A stretch of DNA of 30,733 nucleotides from Chloroflexota bacterium (GTDB taxonomy: Bacteria > Chloroflexota > Dehalococcoidia > Bin125). The DNA lies in the NCBI GenBank assembly GCA_026705105.1, contig JAPPBK010000395.1, forward strand, positions 1 through 30,733. The letters are read 5' to 3'. Below, piece by piece: positions 1 through 30,733 of the stretch; within the stretch, counting starts at the first letter, position 1, and every line of letters begins with the position of its first letter. The notes beneath the pieces were generated by a model that was not told the DNA's origin, did not search any database, and was given only the letters and a program-made list of their open reading frames with translations. The position numbers were made by a program, and so were the translations under genes.

Positions 1-27
1 AGGGTCGGCGGACGCAAGTCACGGCCG

Positions 28-48
28 CCGGGGCCTGTCAAGCCCCGG
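28..48. terminator. Hairpin downstream of ORF 73..336 (and of rep if the element is circular); possible terminator
   Basis: ccggggc-ctgtcaa-gccccgg, a 7-bp stem; no clear U-tract. Confidence 0.25.
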
Positions 49-72
49 GCTGAGGTGCGCGGCAGATACGGC

Positions 73-336
73 CTATGGTGACGCCAGGGGCTCGAGGGCG
101 ACCAGGCCCACGTCGCCGGCAGCGCCCCGGACGCGGCGGTAGCGGCGCTCGGCCCTGACCAGGCGCCGGCGGCCGTCGACGTCGTCGACCGGGAGCCGGG
201 CGTCGACGGCGTCCAGCGCCGCGGCGGCGCGGCCGTACAGCGCCGCGGCCTCGGCCCGCGTCAGCTGGTCCCGCTCGCGCTCGAGGCGCCCCAGCGCGAT
301 CGCTGCCGAGCGCAGCGTCCGCGGACCGCTCGTCAT
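73..336 (-). CDS. Hypothetical protein (87 aa), divergent from parA
   Basis: ATG-started helical ORF filling the space upstream of parA; no recognisable motif. Confidence 0.5.
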   Translation of the reverse strand: MTSGPRTLRSAAIALGRLERERDQLTRAEAAALYGRAAAALDAVDARLPVDDVDGRRRLVRAERRYRRVRGAAGDVGLVALEPLASP

Positions 337-345
337 GCCGCCGCC

Positions 346-378
346 GCTATCATGCTAGCATCGTATCATGGCTATCAA
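346..378 (+). promoter_or_regulatory. Four tandem 8-bp repeats (consensus GCTATCAT) over the parA start; candidate type Ib operator/centromere
   Basis: gctatcat 346, gctagcat 354, cgtatcat 362, gctatcaa 371; includes the palindrome atgctagcat at 352-361. Confidence 0.55.
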
Positions 379-27943: not shown

Positions 27944-28654
27944 ATGCCCTGGACGATCGAGGAGGCCATGAACCTTTCCGACGAGGACCTCCTCGCCGCG
28001 ATCGAGCGTTATGGCGGTGACTACGAGCTGACGGCCATGACGGAGTCTGACGATTCGACGGCCGGACCGACTGGTTTCGACTACGGCAATCTTCTGGGCG
28101 GCCGTGACGATCGCCGTCAGCGATCGATGACCCAGGAGGAGCGCGACGCAGCGGCTCGGGAGGCCCTGGTGAACGCGCTCGTCACCGCGGCGCCGGTGCC
28201 GGGCGGCCGCGCCGCGGGCCTGGCTGGCCGTGGAGTGGCCAGAGCCGCTGGGAAGCCGCTGGACGCCGTTCTGGGCGCGACCACGGGCCGCGGTGCGAAA
28301 CGAATGCGAGCGCTTCGCCAGGCCGGGCGCTATCCGGAGCGCGCCGGACGCGACAAGGCCGGCCGGTTCTCGGGCGCTCCTCCACGGCCTGGCCAAGAGC
28401 GCTGGTTTCGCCAGGGCGGCGGCGCGTTCGCGGGGCAACTGGCGACCAGCGGCGTGACGAGCATGGCCGTTCCGAGCGTCGCGCCGGCGGCGATTCTCGG
28501 CCTGGCGCTGCAGTCGCCGCGGGTGATCGGCGCCCTGCAGTACGCCACCGGCGCTCTGGGTCGGCTGGGAGCGCGCGTGCCCGCGGGCACCGGCGCTGCC
28601 GGCGCGGGAACCGGCCTAGCCGCACTTCTCGCCGCGGCGAGGGGCTCGCGCTGA
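27944..28654 (+). CDS. Ejection-type protein (236 aa) with Gly/Ala-rich hydrophobic helices
   Basis: SPRVIG..Y..G motif; abuts the previous stop. Confidence 0.6.
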   Translation: MPWTIEEAMNLSDEDLLAAIERYGGDYELTAMTESDDSTAGPTGFDYGNLLGGRDDRRQRSMTQEERDAAAREALVNALVTAAPVPGGRAAGLAGRGVARAAGKPLDAVLGATTGRGAKRMRALRQAGRYPERAGRDKAGRFSGAPPRPGQERWFRQGGGAFAGQLATSGVTSMAVPSVAPAAILGLALQSPRVIGALQYATGALGRLGARVPAGTGAAGAGTGLAALLAAARGSR

Positions 28655-28992
28655 GCTGGAAAGACGACGCGGCCGACGCGGCCGACGCCGCTCACCAGGT
28701 TCTGCGGGACATCGCCAAAGATTCGAAGCTGGCGCCGGCGGCCCGGGTTACCGCGTCGCGGGCGCTCATCGATCTGGCGGAGTCTGTGAAGTCACCGGCC
28801 GAACCTCCGGATGCGACCTCTCCGTCATTCGAATCCGTGCCGGACGGCGTCAATCTGACACCTGAGACGGCCCAGCTGGCGCTTGCCGAGCTCCGTGCGT
28901 GGTTGGTGACCGCGACGGGCGGAGGCTCCAGGTCGATCGACGCAATCGATCAGGCCGCGCAAACGATCCGCGACGAGTTCGCGCCGCGCTGA
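28651..28992 (+). CDS. Putative small terminase-like protein, probably CTG-initiated (113 aa)
   Basis: The frame is open from CTG 28651 (CTGA overlap, GAGGGG upstream); VLRDIAKD..PAARVTASRALID resembles TerS-like helical motifs. Confidence 0.5.
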   Translation: MSWKDDAADAADAAHQVLRDIAKDSKLAPAARVTASRALIDLAESVKSPAEPPDATSPSFESVPDGVNLTPETAQLALAELRAWLVTATGGGSRSIDAIDQAAQTIRDEFAPR

Positions 28993-29516
28993 CGCCCGAA
29001 AACCCTCGCAATATCGCTTCGTCGAAGCCCGGCAAAAGGGCGGAAATAGGCGGAAATTCCGAGAGGATCTATAGTTGGGGCAAAAGAACACCCTGCTTCA
29101 CGACCCTCTTAGACGGGTCGCGGCGCCGGAATACAACACGGGGCTCCCCTGAAATAGGCGCCAACCTTGGTCGTGAAGCTTGGGTGTTTTCTGCGGCCCG
29201 TCACCTTTTCGGCCACTCGAGCCTATGCTCTATCCTCAATAAGCTCTGATGGTCGCCCCAGAAACAACAACGCCCAACCACCCCTTCGATTTCGTTGGCC
29301 TGAGATCAGCAGGTGGCTGGACGCCGGATAAAGCGTCATCAGCATAGCACGGAACCGCCGCGACGGGACTGACCGGGGTTCCGGATCTCCCCAGGGGGGG
29401 GACAGCGTGACGTCGTCGCTCGACCTCGAGGTCGAAAACGACTCGACGCTGGGCCCTGGATCGATCGCGGCAATGTCGATCGAAGCCATCGTCGGCATCC
29501 CGGCAGAGCCCTTCTG
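28993..29516 (+). promoter_or_regulatory. Lower-GC non-coding control region upstream of rep (promoter/origin/leader RNA candidate)
   Basis: No convincing ORF; gcggaaat direct repeat at 29040-29057; long inverted repeat at 29087-29188; repeat copy D. Confidence 0.6.
29420..29452 (+). repeat. Dispersed palindromic element, copy D (33 bp), followed by a partial left arm at 29470-29483
   Basis: tcgacctcgaggtcgaaaacgactcgacgctgg; gcaatgtcgatcga matches 13/14 of gcaatgccgatcga. Confidence 0.95.
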
Positions 29517-30722
29517 ATGGCGATTCGCTGGCATCGGCCTGCGGACGTGCGCGAGCGAGCGTGGCTCGACGCGTACCAGACCGGCACCGACGATCACGAA
29601 CCCCAGTTCGTCGATCCCTGGAAGGTGAGCGAACTTCGGTTCTGGGTGAAGAGACGGGCCTACTTGGAGAAGCAGAATCCGTCCGAGCTGACGCTTCGAC
29701 AGTGCGCGTTTCGCCGCGCGAGGCGCAACGCACCTCACCTCTCCGATTCCGTTATCGCCCGGATCGTCCAGGGCGTCGAACGCCAGGCCGAGTTCTACTG
29801 CACCCGCACGATCAGCGAGCGGTTCAGGAAGCGCCAGGCTCGCCGCGGCCGCCTGGGCGGCGTCGCCGGCGATTCACGGCCGGGAGGCCTGGCGCGCGGC
29901 GTCGCGATCCGCCTCAGAAACCAGGAACGCGACAAGGCGATCCGTCGGGCCATGTGGCGACGTGACAACCAGCGCCGGCGTGGCGAGCCCCGGCGCCCGG
30001 TCCGCGAGATCGCGGCCGAGCACAGCGTGAGCCGTACATTCTGCTACTACGTTCAGCACAGACACCTCCAGCTCGAGCACCCGGAGTCGCGCACCTGTCC
30101 GAAGTGCCACGGCCGCGGAGTGATCGTCGATCTGGAGACGAACTCCGCGCGGTTGTGCTCGTGCCGGCCGGCACCGCCGCCGCTCGAGGAGCCTGAACCG
30201 GCGCCGCGGCGCCGTGAGCTGGAGCGGCTCGACCTCGGCGCAGCGATCCGCGGACTCCCGCTCTTATTCGCCAGCGCGCCGGCGCAAGCCGGCGCTTCCG
30301 GATCCGGTGCGTCAGAGACGGATCGGCGCCCGGGGCCTGGCGTTGATGAGGAATCCCCTCTGGATCCGCCGGATGCCGTAGGCGTCCGGCCAGCGATCGC
30401 CGCCGGCGAGAGCCGGCGACCGCCGTCCCTCCGGGTGCGGCACCATGGGGGGCGCACCCCGGAGAGAGGATTGCATGCTGACAGTTTGGGTGCTTCGACC
30501 ACGGATCGGGCCGGTTCGGCGGCCTCGAGGGCGCCCCCAGGTGCCGACAGTTCGATCGACCGACCACCAGGCCAGCGCTTCGAATCGGCCGCGGACTGCG
30601 GGACGGGGGAGGTCTGTCTCGACTGCCGCGGGCTTGGGTTCGTCGGCGAGCTGGGCGCCCTCGAGGCGTGCACGTGCGCCGCTGGCCAGGCGTGGGCCGA
30701 GCGGCGGCGGAAGAGGCCCTGA
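29517..30722 (+). CDS. Putative replication initiator: PriCT-like helices, HTH and two Cys4 Zn-finger-like motifs (401 aa)
   Basis: ISERFRKRQARRGRLGG, VREIAAEHSVSRTFCYYV (HTH), CPKCHGRG..CSC and CLDCRGLG..CTC. Confidence 0.55.
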   Translation: MAIRWHRPADVRERAWLDAYQTGTDDHEPQFVDPWKVSELRFWVKRRAYLEKQNPSELTLRQCAFRRARRNAPHLSDSVIARIVQGVERQAEFYCTRTISERFRKRQARRGRLGGVAGDSRPGGLARGVAIRLRNQERDKAIRRAMWRRDNQRRRGEPRRPVREIAAEHSVSRTFCYYVQHRHLQLEHPESRTCPKCHGRGVIVDLETNSARLCSCRPAPPPLEEPEPAPRRRELERLDLGAAIRGLPLLFASAPAQAGASGSGASETDRRPGPGVDEESPLDPPDAVGVRPAIAAGESRRPPSLRVRHHGGRTPERGLHADSLGASTTDRAGSAASRAPPGADSSIDRPPGQRFESAADCGTGEVCLDCRGLGFVGELGALEACTCAAGQAWAERRRKRP

Positions 30723-30733
30723 GGACCCAACAA

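Follow-up and report, generated by a model that had tools for sequence, protein, structure and literature searches.

The 30,733-nt stretch of DNA analysed here (the window) comes from a sponge microbiome and has both the particle genes of a short-tailed phage and plasmid-maintenance genes on one circle; it therefore probably represents a new phage-plasmid lineage. The reading that we favour, with moderate confidence, is that the element is a temperate podovirus-type phage inherited as a plasmid, the window being a nearly complete copy of its circle. About 19 kb of the circle consists of Mx8/BUCT555-type head, portal, terminase, adaptor, tail and ejection-protein genes. The ~5 kb flanking the junction encodes a type Ib ParA and ribbon-helix-helix (RHH) pair, a Cre-like recombinase and an orphan HTH/zinc-knuckle protein. 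Every one of these maintenance genes has homologues on plasmids, conjugative or mobilizable, that belong to the same pool of 68-70% G+C, and from this gene content we infer that the element is maintained as a plasmid in the cell of its uncultured, sponge-associated host.

The window is the entire contig of a fragmented MAG, with 38 genes called, and its ends neither overlap nor form an inverted terminal repeat. In a different assembly, contig L009 leads from window positions 21453-30733 through 439 nt that are absent from the window and on into window positions 1-10982. It thus bridges the window's end to its start, so the element closes to ~31.2 kb, and the window is about 98.6% of this DNA circle. 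Two contigs from a second sample, L004 and L010, have the identical order as far as a common hairpin, and window positions 73-30733 correspond to a 30816-nt scaffold. The sequence-only reading had supposed that the window may be the full circle; the element does close on itself, but the 439 nt seen in L009 are missing from the window. For the same reason the direct joining of base 30733 to base 1, which would create gaccc-aacaaa-gggtc, does not hold: the 5-bp arms are present in the letters but the two ends are separated in L009. The rep-like gene (which ends at 30722) and the ORF at 73-336 do converge, as had been noticed, and are 522 nt apart in L009. The absence of host genes was also borne out, none of the called genes being a housekeeping gene. 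In none of the assembly copies fetched is the element flanked by host DNA or continued into more phage genes. No match of at least 16 nt, CRISPR-spacer or att-like, was found between the element and the remaining MAG, and Rfam and tRNA scans of the element gave no matches.

The 439-nt stretch contains seven or eight copies of a 24-nt site, spaced 42 nt, in two inverted arrays (107-nt arms, 98% complementary) around a hairpin with a perfect 24-bp stem and a 6-nt loop (-35 kcal/mol, z -11.7). The inverted repeat at this point, which can be read as 24-6-24 or 23-8-23, is the only long one in the circle with a 6-8-nt spacer. It is a perfect palindrome around the 6-nt centre, and the centre itself is not palindromic. 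Window positions 1-72 are the exact reverse complement of the sequence after base 30733 in L004 and L006 and have seven mismatches, at positions 55-72, to the true left flank (L009-L012); they probably result from a wrong join through an inverted repeat at the end of the contig. At the hairpin, L004 doubles back on itself over 112 nt, and L010, from the same sample, begins inside the loop. L009 crosses the hairpin site without turning back. A junction consisting wholly of a ~560-bp perfect palindrome, considered from the 112-nt perfect palindrome of L004, was rejected because in L009 and L010 the unique sequence to the left of the 24-bp stem is not the same as that to the right. Neither the hairpin nor the 24-nt site had an exact match in metagenome and viral contigs, and the site is absent from the plasmid relatives. 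The features of the element are listed in Table 1.

Table 1. Features of the element in window coordinates, with the evidence for each
Feature	Position	Strand	Evidence or remark
Inverted-repeat fragment of the circle-closing region	1..72		One 24-nt site copy at 19-41, minus strand
Arg-rich ORF, 87 aa	73..336	-	GC3 0.94; converges on the rep-like gene across the junction
10-bp palindrome ATGCTAGCAT	352..361		In the 31-nt parA leader; read from sequence
ParA partition ATPase, small type Ib (ParF-like), 204 aa	368..982	+	PHROG 164, E 5e-31
RHH protein	979..1197	+	PF20605, E 1.5e-7
Cre-like tyrosine recombinase, 340 aa	2254..3276	-	PF00589 and PF02899
Probable tail fibre or receptor-binding protein, 767 aa	8990..11293	-	Position after the packaging genes
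Terminase large subunit (TerL)	12132..13703	-	PHROG 38, E 2e-61
Portal protein	13975..15957	-	PHROG 12082, E 5e-85; L015 relative 73% identical
Head-to-tail adaptor	15957..17021	-	PHROG 6013, E 1e-19; L015 homologue has Pfam SU10_adaptor
Major capsid protein	18126..19088	-	PHROG 9953, E 2e-72
PKD-repeat virion surface protein	20047..21648	-	PF22352, E 2e-41, four repeats; 309-nt tandem repeat
Divergent tail and internal (ejection) protein operon	21667..28654	+	PHROG 5107, E 1.5e-52; PHROG 6121; weak 'pilot protein' match
509-aa tail protein	22305..23834	+	Within the divergent operon
Non-coding stretch of lowest G+C (59%)	28993..29406		Upstream of the rep-like gene; composition
16-bp palindrome TCGACCTCGAGGTCGA, one of four perfect copies	29420..29435		Others at 3871, 5173 and 11822
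Orphan 401-aa protein, HTH and two CxxCxGxG zinc knuckles	29517..30722	+	No family match

By direct homology the par genes are of plasmid type, and the ParA-RHH pair first noticed in the letters is confirmed by the PHROG 164, ParA_partition and PF20605 matches. ParA aligned with NCBIfam ParA_partition (NF041546) at 203 of 203 positions and scored 161 bits against a cut-off of 180; tblastn matched it to 2210 plasmid records versus 22 phage records. It is a small Walker type that has no N-terminal DNA-binding domain. The parA stop codon and the RHH start codon overlap, and the RHH protein is presumed to be the ParG-like, centromere- and operator-binding partner of ParA. A pair 80% identical in ParA and 83% in RHH is on small mobilizable MobA/MobC plasmids (L045, L047 and L048), where the RHH gene follows parA; one MobA/MobC relative is a circular plasmid of ~9.7 kb that was assembled as a dimer. 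The RHH protein is 31% identical to its counterpart on the conjugative plasmid L007. The leader palindrome ATGCTAGCAT is a candidate operator or promoter of the par operon, and in L045 and L048, whose parA genes are 80% identical, the parA leader has a comparable TGCTACTATC motif at the equivalent position. The 24-nt arrays are ~330 nt upstream of the par pair, past another ORF, and are not present with the 80%-identical plasmid cassettes.

The only PDB matches of the recombinase with E <0.01 are P1 Cre and its engineered derivative Tre, which match over the full length (E ~1e-9). The R, K, H, R, W and Y of Cre are all aligned, with Trp at the fifth position, and the description of the enzyme as Cre-like is thus upheld. 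The scores against solved integrases were E 0.19 (XerD) and E 1.7 (IntI4), and the protein also matches PHROG 1 'integrase'. Recombinases 34-35% identical to it are found directly upstream of parA in plasmids L045 and L048. The enzyme is presumed to be a multimer resolvase or a cyclization enzyme, and it could be an integrase. The junction inverted repeat, which is outside the window, is a candidate lox-like target.

The earlier label 'Rep-like' for the gene at the right end found no backing in homology. The protein had no match in Pfam (to E 10), PHROGs, NCBIfam, PDB or PLSDB, and no sequence match to the curated Rep families (Rep_3, IncFII RepA, RPA, Replicase/PriCT, TrfA and others). The family has only eight representatives among 1.84 billion proteins, and an AlphaFold model made with five sequences was too poor for use (pLDDT 47). 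The protein does, however, align from end to end, at 57-63% identity, with proteins of the T4SS/ArdC conjugative plasmids L007 and L008 (33-34 kb). As the family has no link to any known Rep, it is from context that the protein is proposed as a candidate replication initiator. The non-coding stretch upstream of it, which has no Rfam family and no nucleotide conservation with the plasmid relatives, is a candidate promoter, control or origin region. Across the junction, the Arg-rich ORF is 63% identical to a small ORF of the mobile element L020, which also has the C-terminal half of a rep-like protein.

The head and tail genes that had been noticed were confirmed, with TerL, portal, adaptor, major capsid protein and tail genes identified. 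The virion, known here from its genes, is of podovirus type, with Mx8, Mx9, BUCT555 and Brucella Tb as relatives and an SU10-type adaptor; BUCT555 is listed as Podoviridae (PMC8228603). The capsid protein is 37-43% identical to those of Bradyrhizobium phage ppBjS10J-1, Myxococcus phages Mx9 and Mx8 and Stenotrophomonas phage BUCT555. Tape-measure, tail tube and sheath families had no match among the called genes, and family searches recognised no repressor, small terminase, holin or endolysin among them. The large virion genes are all intact and have high GC3. The 767-aa protein has no family match, and neither it nor a 442-aa protein matched phage records; the last 318 aa of the 767-aa protein share 37% identity with its counterpart in a close relative, L015. 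The divergent operon includes a 573-aa protein with a variable 87-nt repeat, and homologues of the operon's genes come after the adaptor in related prophages.

L015, from another sponge, is a second member of the lineage. Its proteins are 63-84% identical, and it shares a virion gene order that is rearranged relative to all more distant relatives as well as a His in place of the first nuclease Asp of TerL, a position that is Asp in five relatives. There is no close phage record for the element. Portal relatives were found neither in IMG/VR contigs nor in 400 genomes of the MAG's phylum, and the only one among PLSDB plasmids is on a Burkholderia replicon. Where genomes contain related virion modules, in Alphaproteobacteria and others, these are mostly prophages in the chromosome that lack par and rep genes. 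In addition, the 16-bp palindrome TCGACCTCGAGGTCGA has five matches at up to two mismatches where 0.08 are expected by chance, is absent from the plasmid relatives, and may form an operator set with its three other perfect copies.

A mechanism can be proposed from these parts. Replication would start through the orphan protein, or host factors, at the low-G+C leader or the repeat arrays. The RHH protein would bind the parA-leader palindrome, and possibly also the 24-nt sites, and ParA would then segregate the copies. The Cre-like enzyme would resolve multimers, and perhaps cyclize incoming DNA, at the junction inverted repeat, and the virion genes would be kept silent through the four 16-bp palindromes, which are at module boundaries and would act as operators. 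It is very unlikely, in our estimate, that the junction palindrome is instead the site at which the recombinase rather than the terminase makes unit-length genomes or hairpin ends. Ends made in this way would explain the fold-back contig, the contig break in the loop and the TerL His in both lineage members, and if this is true, the element would be a tailed phage-plasmid in which a simple tyrosine recombinase makes the genome ends.

An ordinary integrative temperate podovirus would use the recombinase as an integrase and ParA/RHH as accessory or transient maintenance functions, the circle being its excised or replicating form. This is unlikely, though of some weight, as the related virion modules are chromosomal and mostly lack par or rep genes, the recombinase matches an 'integrase' family, and any phage with replicating or circularly permuted virion DNA would also give a closed assembly. 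However, the fetched assembly copies contain no host junction, and no part of the element of 16 nt or more recurs in the rest of the MAG. The recombinase is closest to Cre rather than to solved integrases, its nearest homologues found here adjoin parA on plasmids, and plasmids have homologues of every maintenance gene. It is quite doubtful that the element is a defective or domesticated plasmid of phage origin, such as a capsid-encoding plasmid or a transfer-agent-like element, and makes no infectious particles. One argument for this is TerL: the loss of the nuclease Asp means that the phage is possibly not fully functional. The rearranged virion order and the small terminase, lysis genes and repressor that were not recognised point the same way. 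Against these stand the intact virion genes and the conservation of both the order and the His in L015, which looks like selection and not decay, and unannotated genes are normal in divergent phages.

The least probable of these alternatives, to which we give very little credence, is a linear plasmid-prophage of the N15 type, with covalently closed hairpin ends that arise at the junction palindrome. The palindromic site, the fold-back of L004 and the start of L010 in the loop would fit such ends, but L009 passes straight across the site, and a 24-bp GC-rich stem is prone to snap-back artefacts in library preparation or assembly. Moreover the centre of the site is not palindromic, no N15-type protelomerase was matched by Pfam or PHROG among the 38 genes, and the sole recombinase is the 340-aa Cre-like enzyme.

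The prototype phage-plasmid is P1, a 94-kb myovirus with a type Ia ParA/ParB system acting with parS, Cre/loxP and a known RepA. Like P1, the element combines virion genes, a partition ATPase operon and a Cre-type recombinase, and its single inverted repeat with an asymmetric 6-8-nt spacer is a lox-like site candidate. It differs in its size of 31 kb, its podovirus-type virion, its type Ib ParA with RHH and its lack of a recognisable Rep, and the identity of the recombinase to P1 Cre is low although the match is full-length. The partition genes are closer in plan to the type Ib parFGH systems (TP228 ParF/ParG), with a small Walker ParA, overlapping codons and then an RHH gene. The short-leader palindrome and the nearby repeat arrays are also parFGH-like and make up a centromere candidate, as judged from sequence.

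The particle genes are shared with Mx8/Mx9, BUCT555 and Brucella Tb-type podoviruses and related proteobacterial prophages, whose capsid proteins are 27-43% identical to that of the element. The portal, a scaffold-like protein, the adaptor and the 509-aa tail protein are also homologous. These phages, however, are 39-53 kb, have their own replication and integration modules and follow the order terminase-portal-scaffold-capsid, whereas the element and L015 have the rearranged order and a plasmid module in place of replication and integration functions. The 33-kb circular plasmid of Haematospirillum jordaniae (CP014526), a P2-like phage-plasmid, has a 42% identical ParA, a similar size, and toxin-antitoxin and phage genes, but its virion is of the P2 (myovirus) type and no gene except ParA is shared.

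By gene content, with structural/packaging and partition genes and no host DNA, the element falls within the operational phage-plasmid definition of Pfeifer et al. 2021 (PMC7969092). The statement that the best-known phage-plasmids are larger myo- or siphoviruses agrees with that catalogue, in which sipho- or myoviruses account for 95.9% of the phage-plasmids that were typed, and half of all are larger than the median of 67.8 kb (PMC7969092). The element is far below this median and unrelated to any curated group. The heterogeneous F116 community, however, includes Podoviridae and has members down to 21.6 kb (PMC7969092). Of the proposed uncharacterised small podoviral phage-plasmid lineage, the circle, the plasmid-type genes and the podovirus-type virion are therefore retained, but podoviral and ~30-kb phage-plasmids were already known (F116; Haematospirillum), and the element is probably a new lineage of a known kind, not a new kind.

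Short-tailed phage-plasmids, of which few are known, thereby gain an uncultured sponge-associated lineage. One toolkit, made up of the partition pair, the Cre-like recombinase and the orphan protein, is common to phage, conjugative plasmids and small mobilizable plasmids of one community, which is an unusually clear case; gene flow of such a kind is described by Pfeifer and Rocha 2024 (PMC10879196). A new family of replication initiators may be represented by the orphan protein, and this can be tested. A rep-like fragment is also carried by an Acidobacteria MAG.

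The two ends of the window do not overlap, either directly or in inverted form. In L009, a 22.4-kb contig from another sample, window 21453-30733 is followed by 439 nt that are absent from the window and then by window 1-10982. A second sample has the same order split over contigs L004 and L010, which meet at a hairpin. These and other copies show that the element closes to about 31.2 kb, of which the window holds about 98.6%. The sequence-only reading had proposed a ~31-kb podovirus-type phage-plasmid with the window possibly the full circle. Closure of the element on itself stands, but the window falls short of the circle by the 439 nt, and the direct join of its end to its start is not real. 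A 30816-nt scaffold differs from window 73-30733 only by being longer at the tandem repeat near 25.8 kb, and beyond base 30733 two contigs enter the reverse complement of window 72-19. The first 72 bases are probably a mis-join through an inverted repeat, because they match the right-hand flank, inverted, without a difference but show 7 mismatches to the left-hand flank of four other contigs.

Features of the element, by window position
Feature	Position	Description
Probable mis-join	1-72	
ORF	73-336 (-)	faces rep-like gene across junction
ParA	368-982	PHROG 164; NCBIfam ParA_partition, full length
RHH protein		directly after ParA; stop and start codons overlap
Recombinase	2254-3276	PF00589 + PF02899
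Exported-protein cassette	5204-8333	two proteins with lipobox-like signals, one with signal peptide and weak outer-membrane-barrel match
Acidic protein	11305-11844	179 aa, downstream of TerL
TerL	12132-13703	
Virion gene block	12132-21648	one strand
Tandem repeat	25686-25913	87-nt (29-aa) unit in 573-aa internal virion protein
Non-coding leader	28993-29406	about 400 nt, 59% G+C; contains GGCGGAAAT doublet
26-nt inverted repeat	29080-29105 with 29169-29194	long-range, in leader
16-bp palindrome TCGACCTCGAGGTCGA	3871-3886, 5173-5188, 11822-11837, 29420-29435	perfect copies
Rep-like gene	29517-30722 (+)	downstream of leader

Genes for TerL, the portal, the adaptor and the capsid protein are present in the window, as are those for a tail protein of 509 aa, a protein with PKD repeats and several helical, Q/R-rich proteins of ejection-protein type. 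Tape-measure, tube and sheath genes were not found, nor was anything similar to housekeeping-type genes. Matches in Pfam, PHROG and NCBIfam bore out the gene list first drawn up, namely ParA-RHH, a recombinase, head and tail genes and no host genes. Relatives of the capsid protein occur at 37-43% identity in Bradyrhizobium phage ppBjS10J-1, Mx9, BUCT555 (listed as Podoviridae; PMC8228603) and Mx8, and at 27% in Brucella Tb-type phages. In L015, a close relative from an Ircinia sponge metagenome, the portal and capsid are 73% and 84% identical to the window's, and the adaptor carries Pfam SU10_adaptor. Only L015 and the window have the rearranged order scaffold-like, capsid, adaptor, portal, terminase, with the tail and ejection genes divergent; all more distant relatives have terminase, portal, scaffold, capsid.

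Where five relatives have Asp as the first conserved acidic residue of the TerL nuclease domain, the window has His, and so does its L015 counterpart (72% identical); there is also a change in the third motif (HDD or DD). The number of 87-nt units differs between copies of the element: L004 and L009 have one more than the window, and L003, a scaffold, has 155 extra nt there with the gene broken, probably a misassembly.

The partition pair is of plasmid type by its matches: a tblastn search with ParA found 2210 plasmid versus 22 phage records, several of the latter being plasmid-prophages. The nearest relatives (ParA 80%, RHH 83% identity) belong to 32-35-kb MobA/MobC plasmids and to a ~9.7 kb plasmid assembled as a dimer. 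In the dimer contig (L048, 18609 nt, circular by name) all genes repeat at a 9670-nt offset, and thus it is head-to-tail; its unit carries MobC, a Cre-like recombinase, ParA, RHH and a 498-aa protein. In all these plasmids a recombinase 34-35% identical to the window's adjoins parA. Among solved structures the window recombinase matched only P1 Cre and Tre below E 0.01, in a full-length alignment with R, K, H, R, W and Y all aligned; XerD gave E 0.19 and IntI4 E 1.7. The 31-nt parA leader holds a 10-bp palindrome, and a similar motif is present in the plasmid relatives. The acidic 179-aa protein resembles, at 38.5% identity, part of a 391-aa protein whose gene lies directly upstream of parA in two of the mobilizable plasmids (L045, L047); this is another gene that the phage and the plasmids have in common.

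In the rep-like protein (401 aa), a helical N-terminal part is combined with a helix-turn-helix and two CxxCxGxG knuckles that a partly conserved linker joins. Searches of Pfam (up to E 10), PHROGs, NCBIfam, PDB and PLSDB gave no match to it, its structure model was unusable, and an exhaustive search of 1.84 billion representatives gave just 8 relatives. Full-length homologues (57-63% identity) are on two 33-34-kb plasmids, one circular by contig name, that carry T4SS genes, ArdC, ParA-RHH, toxin-antitoxin pairs and an integrase; no known Rep family was found in their examined parts. C-terminal halves of the protein are encoded in elements rich in integrase and toxin-antitoxin genes, one of them within an Acidobacteria MAG. 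Since the homologues are on plasmids and other mobile elements, the gene is a mobile-element backbone gene, and from its position and the absence of any alternative we infer that it encodes a replication initiator. Three of the mobile elements (L017, L018, L020) encode only the C-terminal half (HTH and zinc knuckles, 237-243 aa), and what weakly resembles the N-terminal part is encoded by a separate gene on the other strand. The family thus appears modular. The non-coding leader has no Rfam match.

The element is best explained as a phage-plasmid, and we hold this with moderate confidence. An integrative temperate phage is unlikely. In its favour, the more distant virion relatives (portal about 25-33%) are mostly prophages of Alphaproteobacteria and other Proteobacteria, and no par or rep genes were found in their fetched parts; against it, copies of the element fetched from other assemblies contain neither host flanks nor additional phage genes, in keeping with the sequence-only reading. 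A defective plasmid that encodes a capsid is less likely again; beside the head, tail and ejection-type genes, the window has no recognisable gene for a small terminase, repressor, holin or endolysin.

Two inverted arrays (arms 107 nt, 98% complementary) lie at the junction, where the rep-like gene and ORF 73-336 converge. A 24-nt site, itself near-palindromic, occurs 3-4 times in each array with a spacing of 42 nt. Unique sequence of roughly 70-90 nt separates the arrays from each side of a central hairpin (perfect 24-bp stem, 6-nt loop; -35 kcal/mol, z -11.7), the sole inverted repeat in the whole circle that is long and perfect and has a spacer of 6-8 nt. A linear replicon with hairpin ends is very improbable. 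L004 turns back at the hairpin for 112 nt and its partner contig from the same sample begins inside the loop; L009 runs across the junction. The turn-back is read as an artefact of snap-back at so strong a hairpin, and real DNA ends at this place are conceivable.

Phage-plasmids are already known, and the element is not a new kind of system. In the survey of Pfeifer et al. (2021; PMC7969092), 95.9% of typed phage-plasmids are sipho- or myoviruses and few are Podoviridae (F116 community); the median size is 67.8 kb and the smallest 21.6 kb. A P2-like phage-plasmid of 33 kb already exists. The element is probably a new lineage, whose virion type is rare among phage-plasmids, whose host is uncultured and one of whose backbone genes is an orphan.

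The four TCGACCTCGAGGTCGA copies, against 0.08 expected by chance, sit at operon boundaries, two of them overlapping the first codons of small ORFs, and the plasmid relatives lack the palindrome. The copies form a candidate operator set of some repressor.

The window is one entire contig (C229, 1-30733), the longest among 474 in a 2.7-Mb MAG rated 89% complete. A codon-position model gives 38 genes, with a minus-strand block at ~1.2-21.6 kb and a plus-strand block at 21.7-30.7 kb. Neither Omp85 nor LpxC was found in the MAG, consistent with a single-membrane organism, whereas the exported-protein cassette suggests, on its predicted signals, a double-membrane host and a wrong bin. The bin assignment is doubtful because of these signal-peptide, lipobox and barrel genes, the lack of any spacer-like match between the element and the rest of the MAG, and the composition offset. 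The tetranucleotide correlation of the window with the rest of the MAG is 0.972, below all 14 other contigs of at least 15 kb (0.986-0.993), and its G+C is 69.5% versus 65.9% for the MAG. All plasmid relatives have a G+C of 68-70%, as in the element.
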